From the sequence record PQ850622.1: a DNA stretch of 64,000 nt; one strand, given 5' to 3'. Within the stretch, counting starts at the first letter, position 1; the number at the start of each line of letters is the position of its first letter. The position numbers and the translations under genes were made by a program. Below are positions 52,393 to 60,052 of the stretch, in pieces. The notes under the pieces were generated by a model. That model made no database searches and was not told the origin of the DNA. It saw only the letters and a list, made by a program, of their open reading frames with translations. Source of the stretch: Escherichia phage OliverMaurmann_Bas86.

Positions 52393-52470
52393 TGGTGCAC
52401 CCTACAGGATTCGAACCTGTAACCGACGACTTAGAAGGTCGCTACTCTAATCCAATTGAGCTAAGGGTGC
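52393..52470 (-). tRNA. tRNA-Arg (anticodon UCU), CCA encoded
   Basis: Minus strand reads GCACCCTTAGCTCAATTGGATTAGAGTAGCGACCTTCTAAGTCGTCGGTTACAGGTTCGAATCCTGTAGGGTGCACCA. 7-bp acceptor stem GCACCCT/AGGGTGC, anticodon loop CTTCTAA, T-loop GGTTCGAATCC. Confidence 0.9.
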
Positions 52471-55389: not shown

Positions 55390-55415
55390 AAAAAAGCCCC
55401 ATCCGAAGACGGGGC
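55390..55415 (-). terminator. Rho-independent terminator (third of three)
   Basis: Minus strand reads GCCCCGTC-ttcg-GATGGGGC followed by TTTTTTAT. Confidence 0.85.
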
Positions 55416-55470
55416 GACCTGAAAGAGTGAACATGACCTCACTCATTTAAGAATCCTCGAAAAGACTCTT

Positions 55471-55494
55471 AAAAAAGCGGCCTCGTTAAAGGCC
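55471..55494 (-). terminator. Rho-independent terminator (second of three)
   Basis: Minus strand reads GGCCT-ttaacg-AGGCC-gc followed by TTTTTT. Confidence 0.65.
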
Positions 55495-55574
55495 CGGTCA
55501 AATGACCATCCAATAGGGGTTGAACCATGCCAATGATTCACAAAGGGAGTTCCCTTTAGGTATCACTAGCTACG

Positions 55575-55596
55575 CAAAAAGCCGCACAAAGGCGGC
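55575..55596 (-). terminator. Rho-independent terminator (first of three)
   Basis: Minus strand reads GCCGC-ctttgt-GCGGC followed by TTTTTG. Confidence 0.65.
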
Positions 55597-55655
55597 AGAC
55601 ACAAAGACGCTCAAGAAGAGCGTCATAGTAGTTGACTACTGGTACAGAAGAGGGC

Positions 55656-56099
55656 TTACTTAACTCTTGCTGTTTTGAGTGGGTCAATATATTTTTCAAC
55701 TCCCCACTTATGCTTACTATCAGCGTAGAAAACATCTGGTGCACATTGGCTAGTAGTAGGAAATGCTTTCGGTGGCTTAGTGCTACCTTTATTCTTCTGC
55801 TTACCTTTAGTGCGACCGTTACAAAAGATTTCTAAACGTTTTTCTTGTTCTGTTTTTGCTGCACCGTTGGTTAACAGAGAACGCTTGTGATCAGCAAGAA
55901 GAAGAGCATCAGCACGATGAACACGACGACCTAACACCTTCGCTACGGTAGAAGGTTTATGTTCTTGAGCGGCTTGTTTGATAGCTCTTCGTTTAAGGCT
56001 ACGTTTGCTAATATGGTTAACAGCGGCTGGCTTTTCTTTTTCCAGCTCACTCATAGAGAACACTCGTCCGCCTTTCATGCTGATTTTAGATTTAGCCAT
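55656..56099 (-). CDS. Basic hypothetical protein
   Basis: 147-aa K/R-rich ORF. A TATAAT hexamer at 56128-56133 (minus) lies upstream. Confidence 0.55.
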   Translation of the reverse strand: MAKSKISMKGGRVFSMSELEKEKPAAVNHISKRSLKRRAIKQAAQEHKPSTVAKVLGRRVHRADALLLADHKRSLLTNGAAKTEQEKRLEIFCNGRTKGKQKNKGSTKPPKAFPTTSQCAPDVFYADSKHKWGVEKYIDPLKTARVK

Positions 56100-56169
56100 T
56101 TCTTTATTCCTTTCGCTGATAAATTATATCGTGCAAGCCTTACCACATAGCAAGGCTTAACCAAATAAC

Positions 56170-56379
56170 TTAATCAATTAAACTAAACGATTTCCAACTA
56201 CGTGTAATTGCTACCTTTTCGCCATCAAAGAGAACACTTACAGAGATCAGTTTACCGCGACAACTGGATACCGTGGTAATACGTCCGGTTAATGCCTTAC
56301 CTTTATTCAGGTAGTGATAGCGGACACGACGTCCTAACAAACGAGTAGCTTTCTTCTCTAACGTGCTTAAGCTGGTCAT
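56170..56379 (-). CDS. Small hypothetical protein
   Basis: 69-aa ORF whose start overlaps the upstream stop. Confidence 0.5.
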   Translation of the reverse strand: MTSLSTLEKKATRLLGRRVRYHYLNKGKALTGRITTVSSCRGKLISVSVLFDGEKVAITRSWKSFSLID

Positions 56380-56600
56380 TAAATAGCCCCTTTATATTGG
56401 AGTGATCTTACACGACGATACATAACAGTTGATGCACTAATCGCCGCTTGTTTTCTTTCGTGCTCATGCTGATTCTTTCGAATCTTATCCATCTCGGCAT
56501 CATTACGACGACGTTGTAAGATTCTGCTACATTTGCGATGGTTATTATTAGCACGTGCTTTCTTACAGATAGGGCACAAATGGGATTGAGTTAAGATCAT
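56379..56600 (-). CDS. Small basic Cys-containing protein
   Basis: HLCPICKK..HRKC, then R/K-rich. Confidence 0.5.
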   Translation of the reverse strand: MILTQSHLCPICKKARANNNHRKCSRILQRRRNDAEMDKIRKNQHEHERKQAAISASTVMYRRVRSLQYKGAI

Positions 56601-56830
56601 TTGCGTAACCCCAGCTTACGAAGGAATCGGCCTAACTTAGTTTCTTGCGTGATAGTGTAAGTAACAGAGTTATCAATCAAGGCTTGTTCTTGAATCGGCG
56701 ACGGATACCATTCACCGGTAAGAATGCATTTGCATTCGATTCCATATCTATCGGTTTTACGATAGGTCATATTGTTTAAGATATTACGATACATCTTAAC
56801 TTCTGTTTTCAATTTTGGCATGGTGATCAT
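56597..56830 (-). CDS. Small hypothetical protein
   Basis: 77-aa ORF, coupled. Confidence 0.5.
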   Translation of the reverse strand: MITMPKLKTEVKMYRNILNNMTYRKTDRYGIECKCILTGEWYPSPIQEQALIDNSVTYTITQETKLGRFLRKLGLRK

Positions 56831-56875: not shown

Positions 56876-56908
56876 AAAAGAAAAGGCGCTACCCTTTCGA
56901 ATAGCGCC
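56876..56908 (-). terminator. Rho-independent terminator
   Basis: Minus strand reads GGCGCTA-N10-TAGCGCC followed by TTTTCTTTT. Confidence 0.8.
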
Positions 56909-56927
56909 CCATGTGTTTTATTGTTGG

Positions 56928-57830
56928 TTATGCTGCCAGTTGGCGTGCCGCCATAATCTCGGCAGCTTTGCGTAACACTTCCTCTTCTTCCTGCGCAGCT
57001 TTCTCATTAGCTTTGACAGTTGAAGCGTTTGAGATACGACCGCGAAGGTTAGACAATTTTTCAGTCATTTCATTGATCACCTTTTCCATTTCATCGGCGT
57101 ACGAGTCCAGAGATTCAAGCTCTTTAGTTGAGGCATTAATCAGGTAGTCATCGCTGATAGAAACAGTTGAAGCGGTTACTTTCTTAAGGAGTGAATCGAA
57201 AGTTTTCTTAACTTTGCCTACTTCTTCACTCAATGCGATAGTATTGTCAGAAGATGCGCCGTTGCGTTCATCTGCCAGTAGTGCCGCTTCAATACGGATT
57301 GCAGCCAGACGGTCAACCAGTGCATAAATATCCTGATTAAAGTTTTCGTTAACCTTCTGGTTGATCTGGTTTGCTACCGGAACATTGTCGTTGCAACCTT
57401 TGTAGAATGCTGGGTTATCAACCTGCACGTCTTCACCTTTAGCAAAGCGTTCAAAGGAATTAGACCAGCGGGCGCGGTTTTGTTCCATTTTGGCCTTAAC
57501 TTGTTCCGGTTTAGCATCCTCTTTCGCTTTCGCTTCACCTTCCAGATTAATCCATTTCTTTTTACCGTTCGCCCCGTCGCTGTTGTACTTGATCGGGGTT
57601 AAGAAAGAGATGGCAACCGCAATCACGTCTAAGTCACGATAACGCTCAGTTAACAAGAAATCAACCGCCGCCTGCAATACATCCAGTTTCTTACCGTTGG
57701 TGCGGAAGTGCTGCAAATGGCCTAACAGGAAGTTAGAAACATCTTGTTTGATTGCCGCGTTGTTGCTACGAATGTTGTTAGCCAGTGCATTAAAGCCGGA
57801 TTCGTTAACCAGATTAAAAACTTTAGCCAT
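56928..57830 (-). CDS. Helical early protein of unknown function (300 aa)
   Basis: ATG at 57830 behind ggtga (the track start at 57839 is GTG). First long gene after the promoter/boxA array. Confidence 0.6.
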   Translation of the reverse strand: MAKVFNLVNESGFNALANNIRSNNAAIKQDVSNFLLGHLQHFRTNGKKLDVLQAAVDFLLTERYRDLDVIAVAISFLTPIKYNSDGANGKKKWINLEGEAKAKEDAKPEQVKAKMEQNRARWSNSFERFAKGEDVQVDNPAFYKGCNDNVPVANQINQKVNENFNQDIYALVDRLAAIRIEAALLADERNGASSDNTIALSEEVGKVKKTFDSLLKKVTASTVSISDDYLINASTKELESLDSYADEMEKVINEMTEKLSNLRGRISNASTVKANEKAAQEEEEVLRKAAEIMAARQLAA

Positions 57831-57898
57831 GATATTCACCTTTCAATTGTAAGGGCACTATGCCCCCGCTCTCTATGAGCTTTTTAAGTCACTATTGA

Positions 57899-57938
57899 CT
57901 TATCAATAATCACTCAATATCAAGTAATTATTGATAAG
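57899..57938. repeat. Perfect 12-bp inverted repeat with 16-nt spacer
   Basis: CTTATCAATAAT (57899-910) and ATTATTGATAAG (57927-938), 70-110 nt upstream of ATG 57830. Confidence 0.8.
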
Positions 57939-58650
57939 CGAGGCGGTCTTATCAGGAGTTAACCTTGCCGCCTCCTTATCCGTGATGTTTCATCTGGTAT
58001 CTTTAATTAGTCGCTATAAATAAAGCCGACCTGATAGCGATGATCAATCATCACAATAAGGCAGTGCGTCCGACTCTATTTAATTACTTTATCGTAACCG
58101 TCGGCAATATCGTCTACTTTGCTTTCGCTCCCGCCTATCCTTTTGTACTAACTCTCAATCGCTAACCATCGCCCACTACGGGAGGTTATTGCGAAAGAGT
58201 CATTAGCCGTCTAATGCATTGACGTTTTATATCTTTCAGCAGGTTTACTACATAAACTGATTATGTACGCCATCAATAGTGGCCTCAAATCATTCACATC
58301 GTAAACGTTCACACTAAACCTTATTGTTAAATAGCAATTTGCCACTTTTTAACCATTCACCGCCGCCCCCAATTGGGCGTTAATTCGTCGGATTTGCCTA
58401 CCCTGATAAACTTCTTTCACTGTAGCACCTTGTTAGCGATGGCCGCCGCTACCCTTTAACCGTGGGCGATTAGTTTAGGCCGTTGCGTGTACTCAATGAA
58501 TCCGTTTTATCAGTGGTGACGTTTCCAGTTAAGGGATTGTAAAAACTGTTTACCCTGATAATTTAGGGAGTCTTACGCCGTTTTATCTGGTATGTTTTCC
58601 GATGGTTATTATCATCCAACATATTCAACCGATATAGGAGAATGTTTAAA

Positions 58651-58663
58651 TTGTTAAAGAGCG
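58651..58663 (-). promoter_or_regulatory. rrn-type boxA-like element, copy a (CGCTCTTTAACAA)
   Basis: Minus strand reads CCGCTCTTTAACAATTTAAAC. Hairpin AGTGTG/CACACT (58675-92) lies just upstream on the transcript. Confidence 0.65.
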
Positions 58664-58750
58664 GTAAATCTATCAGTGTGCTTTCTCACACTATGCAACT
58701 GTTAGCCGTTGTTACGCTTTTCTTAAGCGGTGAATTGCTTAAGTGTGCTC

Positions 58751-58779
58751 ATTATGAATCATGCTGTTTTAGCTGTCAA
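58751..58779 (-). promoter_or_regulatory. Sigma70-type promoter P-a
   Basis: TTGACA (58779-74), 17-nt spacer, CATAAT (58756-51). A-rich upstream flank. Confidence 0.65.
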
Positions 58780-58881
58780 CCGCTTTTTTAATCTTTTTCG
58801 TCGTTCCCTTTATTGGGAGGATATATCAATCAGCTATATTTGATTGAAGATTAAGCGGTAAGGCTTAACTCACGATTCATA

Positions 58882-58894
58882 TTTTTAAAGAGCG
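58882..58894 (-). promoter_or_regulatory. rrn-type boxA-like element, copy b (CGCTCTTTAAAAA)
   Basis: One mismatch to copy a. Confidence 0.55.
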
Positions 58895-58917
58895 GTGTTT
58901 CTTACTGCTTGGTGAAC

Positions 58918-58944
58918 ATTCTATCAGAGTGTTCACCTTGTCAA
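58918..58944 (-). promoter_or_regulatory. Sigma70-type promoter P-b (extended -10)
   Basis: TTGACA (58944-39), 15-nt spacer, TG-a-TAGAAT (58923-18). Confidence 0.55.
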
Positions 58945-59016
58945 CTCTTTTTATCATCTTCTTTTATTCTATTCCCTTATCTCGCTTGAATCTATGCGAA
59001 AGGGCAAGATGATAAA

Positions 59017-59029
59017 TTGTTAAAGAGCG
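59017..59029 (-). promoter_or_regulatory. rrn-type boxA-like element, copy c (CGCTCTTTAACAA + TTTATCA)
   Basis: Minus strand reads GGCAC-tta-GTGCC-CCGCTCTTTAACAATTTATCATC. The hairpin at 59031-59043 immediately precedes it. Confidence 0.7.
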
Positions 59030-59075
59030 GGGCACTAAGTGCCGGATGTTTCAAGTCATCGCTGACCGTGTGAAC

Positions 59076-59103
59076 ATCTTATCATAGTGATTCGATGTGT
59101 CAA
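59076..59103 (-). promoter_or_regulatory. Sigma70-type promoter P-c (extended -10)
   Basis: TTGACA (59103-098), 16-nt spacer, TG-a-TAAGAT (59081-76). AAAAATAG lies upstream. Confidence 0.65.
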
Positions 59104-59165
59104 CAACTATTTTTCGATTAATGCATCTTGATAAACTAGCGACCGTTAAGGCCGCTAACCTTACC

Positions 59166-59366
59166 TTAGTTCATACGTTTAAAGGTTAAATCTTTATCCG
59201 TACTTACCAGCGATAACACCGCAATAGCTTTGCCTTTATCGGCATCGGCTACCATCTCTTTTGCCTGCTGTAATGTACTACCGACTATTCTCATAATCAT
59301 GTTAGTAACGTTAATGCTAGTGCAAGTGATTTGCGTGTCTTTGCTTGAGAAGGTGTAGATGTTCAT
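59166..59366 (-). CDS. Small hypothetical protein
   Basis: ATG at 59366 behind gagga is preferred over the track start at 59405. Confidence 0.5.
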   Translation of the reverse strand: MNIYTFSSKDTQITCTSINVTNMIMRIVGSTLQQAKEMVADADKGKAIAVLSLVSTDKDLTFKRMN

Positions 59367-59420
59367 TGATAAATCCTCGTTATGGCATGGTTGAGAGTTT
59401 ATCAAGATACACTAATCGAA

Positions 59421-59433
59421 TTATTAAAGAGCA
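59421..59433 (-). promoter_or_regulatory. rrn-type boxA-like element, copy d (TGCTCTTTAATAA)
   Basis: Preceded on the transcript by hairpin GGCTA-gatgtt-TAGCC (59450-35). Confidence 0.6.
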
Positions 59434-59491
59434 AGGCTAAACATCTAGCCTATCAGGAGGTAACTTACTGCATCGCGTCCTGACAAGATTC

Positions 59492-59519
59492 AATATACAC
59501 TATCCTAAAACCGTTGCAA
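59492..59519 (-). promoter_or_regulatory. Sigma70-type promoter P-d
   Basis: TTGCAA (59519-14), 16-nt spacer, TATATT (59497-92). Confidence 0.5.
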
Positions 59520-59681
59520 GCCTTTTTCTAAAATAATTTCACTTTCTTTTAGGTATAGAGGAACACGCGCACGAATAACATCAAGGGAGGAAGAAAACAA
59601 GCATTATAATCAAAAGCTAGGCATGTAGGAGGCGTTCTAACGAGATAAACAGGGGCAAGATGTGCAATCACCTTAGAAATG

Positions 59682-59705
59682 AAAAAAGCGCCTCAAAAGG
59701 GCGCT
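59682..59705 (-). terminator. Rho-independent terminator
   Basis: Minus strand reads AGCGCC-cttttg-aGGCGCT followed by TTTTTC. Confidence 0.8.
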
Positions 59706-59725
59706 TAGAGAGTCTTACGGGTTGG

Positions 59726-60052
59726 TTACGGATTGGTGCAAGTGCCGTTACCTGATGCTATTTCGTTCATCGACTCATCGAACAACGTCATGCTAGACCG
59801 CATCATGTGATCAATGGTGATTTGCTTGCCTGTTGTCTGATTGACCAGCATTGCAGACTTACTATCAACTATCTTGCTGTCGTAGTCGTTCAGGTCAATC
59901 AATATTGCCTTGCTGGACTTCTTGCCAGTGTCGTAGTTTTCCATTAGATAGGTGCATTGCAGACCATCTAAACTGGCCTCGTTGAATACGGCAGCATGTG
60001 ACACGGAAGAAACAGCGAACAAGGCAGCACATACAGCTAATTTAATTTTCAT
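59726..60052 (-). CDS. Secreted (Sec signal peptide) small protein
   Basis: MKIKLAVCAALFAVSSVSHA-AV. Confidence 0.6.
   Translation of the reverse strand: MKIKLAVCAALFAVSSVSHAAVFNEASLDGLQCTYLMENYDTGKKSSKAILIDLNDYDSKIVDSKSAMLVNQTTGKQITIDHMMRSSMTLFDESMNEIASGNGTCTNP

Follow-up and report, generated by a model that had tools for sequence, protein, structure and literature searches.

Host-rRNA-type boxA elements behind the early promoters of a phiEco32-like phage: putative recruitment of the rRNA antitermination machinery

Why does a virulent phage carry, behind its early promoters, four copies of a short element resembling the boxA of host rRNA leaders? Antitermination by boxA and the Nus factors is a classic process of rRNA operons and, together with N, of temperate lambdoid phages; more recently it has been recognised in CRISPR arrays and in a few mRNAs. 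The window analysed here is 64,000 nucleotides of DNA from Escherichia phage OliverMaurmann_Bas86 (PQ850622.1), a virulent phiEco32-like podophage (Gordonclarkvirinae) with E. coli as its host. The analysis, which is computational throughout, suggests that a virulent phage carries exact copies of the host rrn-type boxA behind all its main early promoters and would borrow the rRNA transcription machinery for its first transcripts. The four boxes are probably genuine host-rRNA-type boxA elements (GCUCUUUAA-A) that enlist host NusB/NusE and, with them, the antitermination complex of rRNA operons, which would make immediate-early transcription processive and Rho-resistant; we infer Nus-factor binding and all functional consequences from the sequence.

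The four boxes and their promoters

The published gamma-proteobacterial boxA consensus, GYTCTTTAANA (Baniulyte 2017, PMC5725501), has four matches on the two strands of the 64-kb window, against 0.57 expected, and four or more matches occurred in none of 100 shuffles. All four are on the minus strand, at the coordinates where the first-pass annotation had placed four 13-nt boxes. A chance origin is ruled out by the shuffles together with the conservation among relatives. The boxes and their promoters are given below in the order of transcription.

59492-59519, minus strand: promoter P_d, TTGCAA-16-TATATT, with an A/T-rich tract upstream (promoter scan and sequence)
59421-59433, minus strand: boxA d, TGCTCTTTAATAA, exact consensus fit
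59076-59103, minus strand: promoter P_c, TTGACA-16-TAAGAT, with a TG extended -10 (promoter scan)
59010-59029, minus strand: boxA c with its spacer, CGCTCTTTAACAATTTATCA (CGCTCTTTAACAA followed by TTTATCA), consensus fit and identity to an rrn leader
58918-58944, minus strand: promoter P_b, TTGACA (58944-58939), 15-nt spacer, TGaTAGAAT (-10 at 58923-58918) (sequence)
58882-58894, minus strand: boxA b, CGCTCTTTAAAAA, exact consensus fit, at about +17 from the predicted start
58751-58779, minus strand: promoter P_a, TTGACA-17-CATAAT, kept in all relatives (promoter scan)
58651-58663, minus strand: boxA a, CGCTCTTTAACAA, exact consensus fit, the last box before the untranslated RNA described below

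Tandem sigma70 promoters have already been reported for phiEco32 and SU10 (PMC4281155). In the window, TTGACA is the -35 of three promoters, and an extended -10 is seen in two, in agreement with the annotation. Its distance of 17-90 nt between start and box also agrees with the sequence, the -10-to-box distance being 23-81 nt on the same strand, with start sites taken at their predicted positions. Between the predicted start and box b there are only about 17 nt, and about 8 nt in phiEco32, a shorter distance than in rrn leaders. The P_b spacer is 16 nt long in the relatives, the 15-nt spacer of the window representing a 1-nt deletion.

With UUU, the boxes belong to the rrn type and not to the lambda type. 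The E. coli K-12 rrnB leader reads ...GCGGCAC TGCTCTTTAACAATTTATCAGACAATCTGTGTGGGCAC, and CGCTCTTTAACAATTTATCAG is present in one of the rrn leaders of strain IAI39; copy c is identical to these at 19/20 and 20/20 positions, respectively. The E. coli rrn boxA sequence given in the annotation is correct, and the match that it put at about 19 nt measures 19-20 nt. Transfer of a whole rrn leader was rejected, as the identity ends at the box and its 8-nt spacer and the flanks are unrelated. The short match at the box was also all that a BLAST search with unit c recovered from 5,426 E. coli genomes. A scan of IMG/VR with an rrn-type 18-mer recovered genuine rrn leaders, Pasteurellaceae prophage-like contigs and one group of unknown kind, with no additional Kuravirus.

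The affinity of an rrn-type boxA (UUU) for NusB:NusE is about ten times that of the lambda nut boxA (8 nM versus 80-90 nM; PMC2800207), in favour of recruitment of the host factors by the boxes. Alternatively, the boxes could form a sponge, in which abundant early RNAs with one to four high-affinity boxA copies would sequester NusB/NusE/SuhB, depriving the seven host rrn operons of these factors and helping to shut off host ribosome synthesis. The three or four tandem near-consensus promoters, each with a box of the high-affinity type, would suit this role, a P_d transcript would contain four boxes, and shut-off of host transcription by the phage has been described (PMC12276001). However, the arrangement of one box per promoter, always near the start, is better suited to loading in cis; the boxes precede long functional transcripts rather than short terminated decoys; and gp79 already shuts off sigma70 transcription (PMC12276001). 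We regard titration as improbable.

The following hairpins stand before the boxes.

59434-59451, minus strand: hairpin before boxA d, with a gap of 0 nt (RNA fold); its stem is invariant in the relatives and hence gives no covariation evidence
59031-59043, minus strand: hairpin GGCACTTAGTGCC, with a gap of 1 nt to boxA c (RNA fold)
58675-58692, minus strand: hairpin AGTGTG-AGAAAG-CACACT, with a gap of 11 nt to boxA a (alignment fold)

The annotation had described three copies as directly preceded by a hairpin, in the boxB-then-boxA order of the rrn leader. This is true of units d and c; the hairpin of unit a is separated from its box by the 11-nt gap, and RNA folding revealed no hairpin upstream of box b. 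Covariation support among these hairpins is limited to unit a, in which three base pairs (alignment positions 112/130, 113/129 and 114/127) are compensatory in 3-5 of 13 phages. Hairpins situated no more than 12 nt upstream of the box are present in 24 of the 28 upstream contexts found among the relatives, compared with 68% of shuffles. They show no enrichment, and their interpretation as boxB mimics was abandoned; the covarying hairpin of unit a notwithstanding, the likeness to the rrn order is weak. Comparison with the rrnB leader showed that a boxC-like GU-rich element (UGUGUGGG) is absent 3' of all four boxes. In local folds boxes d and c are unpaired (d in the minimum-energy fold), whereas some positions of box a are paired. 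RNAalifold predicted that boxA a pairs with its complement at 57864-57875, near the first gene, and this pairing was discarded: it is invariant, lacks covariation and has one pair broken in 4 of 22 phages.

The hairpins also bear on the possibility that the boxes are lambda-like nut sites, at which boxA would work only with a phage N-like protein bound to a neighbouring hairpin, the resulting complex crossing intrinsic terminators. Hairpins flank every box and some of them covary. Nevertheless, the units have no conserved boxB-like hairpin in common, none is shared 3' of the box, and the rrn type of the boxes is not that of lambda. The protein that such sites would need is considered with the terminators below.

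Conservation of the boxes among related phages

The related set consisted of 30 phages, namely 22 Kuravirus/Suseptimavirus phages and eight distant metagenomic relatives in which the neighbouring protein is 45-70% identical. Together they contain 114 boxA units that fit the consensus at 11 of 11 positions; every one is on the transcribed strand, and the opposite strand has none. The 22 Kuravirus/Suseptimavirus phages have 92 of these units. Their contexts number 28 upstream and 8 downstream, and the similarity breaks off at the edge of the box. The eight distant relatives have 22, with two or three perfect boxes each and none on the other strand; a TTGACA-type promoter precedes each box, and 870-936 nt separate the last box from the gene. 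In alignment A3, which has a mean column identity of 56%, 12 of the 13 positions of boxA a are invariant, against a background of 12%, making it the best 13-nt window among 851 positions. In the more distantly related Salmonella phage 7-11, the early end is devoid of boxA.

The occurrence of at least 28 unrelated promoter contexts before the box argues for strong selection on the box itself, and the swapping of modules is a natural experiment that marks it as the constrained element. Exchange of promoter modules exactly at the box edge, in 28 upstream contexts, would also be expected of recombination at a common short sequence. The 13-bp box might then act at the level of DNA, as a protein binding site or a recombination hot spot for promoter modules, and its likeness to boxA would be a coincidence. 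We consider this extremely improbable. A perfect consensus in 114/114 sense-oriented units, some of which match rrn leaders over 19-21 nt, is very unlikely for an unrelated DNA site; moreover, the box is not palindromic, and module swapping can itself result from a conserved functional box.

Their exact consensus fit, the lack of any other match in the window, their retention in all units of the 30 phages, always on the transcribed strand, and the swapping of the promoter modules in front of them make it very probable that the boxes function as boxA RNA elements and engage host NusB/NusE. Consensus fit, sole matches and retention likewise favour the annotation's proposal that the phage loads an rrn-type Nus complex onto its early transcripts, whereas the boxB-boxA likeness on which it had also drawn proved weak.

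The untranslated RNA, the first gene and the terminators

The region around and beyond the boxes has the following features.

59686-59706, minus strand: intrinsic-terminator-like hairpin closing the upstream operon, which has no boxA; an annotated terminator in SU7
57831-58650, minus strand: conserved and heavily base-paired untranslated RNA, about 820 nt long, separating boxA a from the first gene (alignments A2 and A3)
56928-57830, minus strand: first gene after the RNA, 300 aa, a homologue of phiEco32 gp124, always linked to the boxA/RNA module
56883-56910, minus strand: strong intrinsic-terminator-like hairpin directly after the 300-aa gene, proposed as the first barrier for boxA-modified polymerase, with no strong sigma70 promoter behind it

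The RNA that follows the last boxA had been overlooked in the first-pass annotation. It is found in 97/97 related phage records and has a folding z-score of -7.5. Compensatory pairs number 76, 64 and 144, against 43, 38 and 92 in the corresponding shuffles, and the observed number was exceeded by 0/500 shuffles in each case. A coding role for the stretch was rejected: there is no conserved ORF, and a 44-aa ORF starting with GTG (58211-58345) is absent or reduced to 24-25 aa in the relatives. Searched against Rfam 15, the window had no match at the gathering score other than tRNA, and the region 57700-59750 gave only chance-level matches at E<5.

The RNA is rich in G and not in C (G 23.4%, C 17.7%), and rut-like windows are scarce; Rho may for this reason be a minor threat within it. 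C-rich rut sites in the leader, considered as a cause for anti-Rho protection, were not found.

The antitermination reading is supported by the long untranslated structured RNA behind the last box, as is the case for the N-independent boxA of rRNA and CRISPR arrays (PMC7665894), and also by the upstream operon, which lacks boxA and ends at the strong terminator 59706-59686. Since the boxes head a conserved structured untranslated RNA, the analogy with rrn operons and CRISPR arrays, where boxA serves a long untranslated RNA, is closer than the argument from terminators.

A Nus complex assembled on boxA can also repress, as at suhB (PMC5725501), and this counts against our preferred explanation. 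The boxes might on that model exert negative control, the complex blocking translation of the downstream gene or causing its termination by Rho, and so act as a brake on early expression. Repression through boxA has been demonstrated at suhB, with further genes predicted to be controlled in this way (PMC5725501), and box d is 55 nt upstream of the start codon of a small ORF. However, start codons are distant from boxes a, b and c, with 820 nt between the last box and the next gene; it is difficult to see why a lytic phage would place a repressive element behind each of its strong early promoters; and the link to a long untranslated RNA fits the known cases of antitermination (PMC7665894). A repressive role is very improbable.

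There are 31 terminator-like hairpins in the window, where 11.2 are expected, and most are on the minus strand. As most of them have no strong sigma70 promoter behind, some read-through mechanism or processive transcription is needed. The boxes might plausibly explain the crossing of nine or more intrinsic terminators by one operon, which the annotation had ascribed to them. The rrn-type complexes are nevertheless established mainly as anti-Rho devices, rrn operons themselves end at intrinsic terminators, and in older genetic work the complexes read through intrinsic terminators poorly in vivo. Suppression of intrinsic termination by the rrn-type complex is known in vitro only (PMC6614801).

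The many downstream terminators without promoters also fit the nut-site alternative, as lambdoid N systems do cross intrinsic terminators (PMC5725501). Very basic small proteins are encoded nearby: one of 73 aa (RILQRRRND, net charge +13), one of 69 aa and one of 147 aa. However, these are encoded beyond the first strong terminator, and the place that an N gene would occupy, after the box and ahead of that terminator, is taken by the gene of the 300-aa protein, which is acidic and has no Arg-rich motif. No antiterminator or N-like gene was found with Pfam, PHROG and the check for Arg-rich motifs. Nut sites that depend on a phage protein are unlikely. The AlphaFold model of the 300-aa protein (pLDDT 80) gave no meaningful match in a fold search, nor did the neighbouring proteins in Pfam, PHROGs, NCBIfam and PDB sequence searches.

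Recruitment of the host complex by the boxes might proceed as follows. As each strong early sigma70 promoter has its own box, every early transcript would have at least one near its 5' end. On leaving the RNA polymerase, the box would be bound by host NusB-NusE(S10), and with NusG, NusA and SuhB the polymerase would become an rRNA-type antitermination and chaperone complex, for which a phage protein would be unnecessary. The modified polymerase would transcribe the folded untranslated RNA of about 0.82 kb and then the early genes. Transcription would be Rho-resistant, fast and processive, possibly with less stopping at the many intrinsic terminators. Against this mechanism count the G-rich composition of the RNA, the poor read-through of intrinsic terminators in vivo, the unenriched hairpins, the missing boxC, the closeness of box b to the start and the lack of boxA in phage 7-11.

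More tentatively, phiEco32-like phages may run a mimic of an rRNA operon. Tandem near-consensus promoters, each with a perfect host boxA, would provide an rRNA antitermination and chaperone complex from the first minute of infection, with no phage protein, and this complex would make, and help to fold, a large structured phage RNA of a new kind (0.82-0.93 kb) before proceeding into the early genes. The boxes may exist chiefly for the sake of this RNA and not of the terminators.

Comparison with other boxA systems

The closest likeness is to the E. coli rrn leader (boxB-boxA-boxC) and its complex, the rrnTAC (NusA/B/E/G, SuhB and S4). The phage shares with it the same boxA over 19-20 nt (copy c), tandem strong promoters, a box near the start, a long structured untranslated RNA behind and the proposed independence of a phage protein. 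Unlike rrn, the phage is virulent and has four units, each with its own promoter, whereas in rrn two promoters share one box. It has no boxC, its boxB-like hairpins are non-homologous and statistically unremarkable, and its transcript runs on into early protein genes.

The lambdoid nut sites (lambda, P22 and phage 21), which depend on N, likewise combine a phage boxA with host Nus factors for termination-resistant early transcription, as is proposed here. In them, however, boxA is followed by an N-binding boxB, and the boxA of lambda is the weaker CGCUCUUA form; the present boxes are of the rrn type and belong to a virulent phage.

Tandem promoters near the genome end are also familiar from T7, where several strong host-type promoters (A1-A3) drive the whole early region, much as in the phage described here. 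The T7 early RNA differs in being handled by RNase III sites and the phage's own polymerase, and to our knowledge T7 has not been described as a user of boxA.

In Salmonella and many other bacteria the boxA of CRISPR arrays is N-independent, heads an unusually long untranslated RNA and prevents premature Rho termination (Stringer 2020, PMC7665894). It is a single box at a host locus, whereas the phage has tandem promoter-box units in its early region, followed by genes. The boxA of the suhB 5'-UTR and of other mRNAs has the same consensus and a position in the mRNA leader (Baniulyte 2017, PMC5725501); these elements act negatively and within about 50 nt of the start codon, unlike the phage boxes.

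The annotation knew of no such description for this phage group, and the literature search, which did not extend to Savalia 2008 and Pavlova 2012, found no paper joining phiEco32 or Kuravirus to boxA or Nus. If correct, the recruitment proposed here would be a protein-free route to Rho-proof, fast immediate-early transcription in a virulent phage. It would also be a concrete candidate for the antitermination strategy of phage 7-11, which according to authors working on this phage group "remains to be defined" (PMC8948821). The analysis further reveals a large, deeply conserved, structured RNA in a group of phages used for therapy.

The surroundings of P_d have additional features. A 52-nt stretch (59488-59539) is 85-86% identical to sequence in Phapecoctavirus phages, which have no boxA behind it. 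Between units d and c lie a long-range inverted repeat and a small ORF.

59389-59420, minus strand: 5' arm of the repeat, 32 nt, 84% complementary, kept in 8 relatives
59166-59366, minus strand: ORF of 66 aa without a family match, a hypothetical protein in SU7, PAS59 and MLP3
59113-59144, minus strand: 3' arm of the repeat, pairing with 59389-59420

The two arms pair in a continuous helix of 25 bp that brackets the small ORF.

Promoter-boxA units and their conservation

Sequence matching identifies the window as a phiEco32-like podophage (Gordonclarkvirinae: Kuravirus and Suseptimavirus), with identities of 98% to vB_EcoP-101114UKE3, 93% to SU7 and ~90% to phiEco32 across the conserved half. 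In phiEco32, the counterpart of the boxA region is a ~1.9-kb gap without genes that separates genes 124 and 125, close to the right end of the genome. An earlier paper reporting tandem sigma70 promoters here for phiEco32 and SU10 (PMC4281155) does not mention the boxes. Leftward genes occupy the window as one block from ~61.3 kb down to 18.6 kb. At ~61.3-62.7 kb the strand switches and the GC skew turns, suggesting a circularly permuted representation in which the physical genome end would lie 2-3 kb upstream of the promoters and boxes. A tRNA-Arg(TCT) gene (52393-52470, minus strand) is situated inside the early/middle region.

The four boxes and their promoters are as the first-pass annotation described them, with near-consensus sigma70 promoters each preceding a box on the minus strand:

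58663-58651, minus strand: box a; promoter P_a, TTGACA-17-CATAAT
58894-58882, minus strand: box b; promoter P_b (58918-58944, minus strand), TTGACA-15-TGaTAGAAT
59029-59010, minus strand: box c with its tail; promoter P_c, TTGACA-16-TGaTAAGAT
59433-59421, minus strand: box d; promoter P_d, TTGCAA-16-TATATT

The 15-nt spacer of P_b, which is 16 nt long in relatives, results from a 1-nt deletion in this phage. P_d and its A/T-rich upstream tract (59488-59539) have 85-86% identity over 52 nt with Phapecoctavirus; in these ~150-kb myophages the P_d-like promoter precedes small genes and has no boxA behind it.

All four boxes match GYTCTTTAANA, the boxA consensus based on functional elements of E. 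coli (PMC5725501). With both strands of the 64-kb window counted, there are exactly four matches (0.57 expected), and four or more were found in 0 of 100 shuffles. The proposed rrn match of copy c holds: with its tail, CGCTCTTTAACAATTTATCA, it is identical to the E. coli K-12 rrnB leader at 19 of 20 positions and to the rrn leader of strain IAI39 at 20 of 20. Beyond this stretch the flanks are unrelated to both leaders, and boxC is absent from the phage units, a weak point of the rrn analogy. The hairpin-before-box order, also likened to rrn, fared less well: upstream hairpins are present, but their frequency within 12 nt does not exceed that in shuffles. Compensatory changes are seen only in the unit a hairpin (58692-58675) and in some hairpins behind the boxes.

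The same region was compared in 21 further Kuravirus/Suseptimavirus genomes. Every genome of the set has 3-5 consensus boxes, and all 92 units are on the transcribed strand, with 0 opposite. The boxes are preceded by 28 unrelated contexts, representing different promoter modules, and followed by 8, the box edge being the exact point where similarity ends. Eight more distant metagenome-assembly loci, in which relatives of the 300-aa protein of the first gene (56928-57830, minus strand; a homologue of phiEco32 gp124) are only 45-70% identical, have 2-3 perfect boxes each (22 units on the gene strand, 0 opposite). TTGACA-type promoters precede most of these boxes, and the last box is 870-936 nt from the gene, with no called gene between. 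Upon aligning 14 close and 8 distant phages (the divergent alignment; 56% mean column identity), 12 of the 13 box positions were found to be invariant, compared with 12% overall. Of all 13-nt windows along the 851 positions, the box ranks first. Its retention in all of these phages, the exchange of modules at its edge and this conservation indicate that the box itself is the constrained element. In the second unit of distant relatives L063, L068, L071 and L072, nTTATCAGG directly follows the box. The L071 copy, CGCTCTTTAACAATTTATCAG, is identical over 21 nt to a variant of the E. coli rrn leader. The stretch behind boxA may also be under constraint.

Directly after box d, a long-range inverted repeat (59389-59420/59113-59144; 32 nt, 84% complementarity), with a 25-bp continuous helix, flanks a 66-aa ORF. 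It is reminiscent of an RNase III stalk or of the helix that joins rRNA leader and trailer, and is kept in 8 relatives with too little variation for covariation analysis.

A structured untranslated RNA behind the boxes

From box a to the first gene, an 820-nt stretch (57831-58650, minus strand) is 76-99.8% identical in 97 of 97 related phage records and contains no conserved ORF. It folds far better than shuffles, with a z-score of -7.5 (-249.5 kcal/mol) for the minus strand; the plus-strand z-score is -5.6 (-217.3 kcal/mol). The RNAalifold structure of 22 close phages has 251 pairs, with 98.1% of cells paired. Both sides changed in 76 pairs, a count that none of 500 shuffles attained (43.1 ± 3.6) and that fell to 8-11 when partners were slid. 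When the structure was instead predicted from the window alone, it had 64 such pairs in the close phages (38.3 ± 3.5 in shuffles, 7-13 slid). On the divergent alignment it gave 144 (92.2 ± 5.1 in shuffles), together with 540 double-changed cells versus 170 and 363 further pair types versus 306.5 ± 6.6, each value being reached by 0 of 500 shuffles. Covariation is strong across 30 phages, and the strand indicated by the numerous G-U pairs is the minus one.

Being conserved, without an ORF, strongly folded and covarying, this stretch is a large, structured, untranslated RNA with the boxes at its head. It has no match in Rfam and may represent a new RNA family. The RNA continues into the first early gene with no terminator between. 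Since it is G-rich and has few rut-like windows, protection from Rho may matter less for the RNA itself than for the genes behind it. A near-boxA, TGCTATTTAACAA (58324-58336, minus strand), has a C-to-A change at a core position and is kept in 22 of 22 close phages and largely in distant ones. It is located within helices of the structured RNA, which makes a structural role more probable than one as a Nus site.

Terminators and recruitment of Nus factors

The transcribed strand has more terminator-like hairpins than expected (31 against 11.2), the first one past the boxes (56910-56883) lying directly behind the first gene. Most of the strong hairpins (56910, 55596, 55494, 55415 and others) are not followed by a strong sigma70 promoter, so read-through is needed. 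One intergenic region (55396-55624, minus strand) holds four of these hairpins in 230 nt (55624, 55596, 55494, 55415), with no strong promoter after them. The first-pass annotation had attributed passage across such terminators to an rrn-type complex. The terminators and the need for read-through stand, but the support for intrinsic suppression is in vitro, and in older genetics the in vivo effect of this complex on intrinsic terminators is weak. For this reason, a phage co-factor possibly takes part. Very basic small proteins are encoded directly behind the first terminator:

55656-56830, minus strand: proteins of 77 aa (+7), 73 aa (+13), 69 aa (+10) and 147 aa (+22)

These may bind nucleic acid. 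No antiterminator family was matched, nor did a family search return any match. The 73-aa protein contains a CPIC motif and RILQRRRND. The 300-aa protein, in an N-like position, gave a confident model with no fold match. A 108-aa protein (59726-60052, minus strand) with a signal-peptide-like N-terminus is called 'terminase' by several records and by PHROG 13168, which looks like a propagated misannotation.

Recruitment of host Nus factors by the predicted boxA elements is very likely. The phage boxes belong to the rrn type, whose affinity for NusB:NusE is ~10-fold that of lambda nut boxes (PMC2800207). Acting in cis, the box RNA would recruit factors already in the cell, as befits immediate-early transcripts made before any phage protein. 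The arrangement follows the logic of rRNA and CRISPR arrays, in which an N-independent boxA heads a long untranslated RNA. In rRNA, the complex of Nus factors and SuhB withstands Rho and assists folding independently of phage proteins, and in vitro suppression of an intrinsic terminator, lambda tR', is seen with the rrn-type complex that includes SuhB (PMC6614801); in CRISPR arrays, boxA stops premature Rho termination (PMC7665894). Rho resistance, speed and help with folding would be the consequences in the phage.

Occurrence in other phages

No paper among those searched ties phiEco32, Kuravirus or Gordonclarkvirinae to boxA or Nus factors. The promoter-boxA arrangement seems to be an undescribed variant of known boxA antitermination systems, although earlier mention, as in the primary phiEco32 papers, is possible. 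Salmonella phage 7-11, a more distant relative whose antitermination strategy its authors call as yet undefined (PMC8948821), has no boxA at its early end. Other phages may also use an rrn-type boxA, because five IMG/VR contigs of an unrelated viral group (L030, L033, L041, L044 and L046), without a match in the phage collection, carry GCTCTTTAACAATTTATC ~35 nt past the promoter-like TTGATATATAATAGAT. A second IMG/VR contig group resembles Pasteurellaceae prophages.
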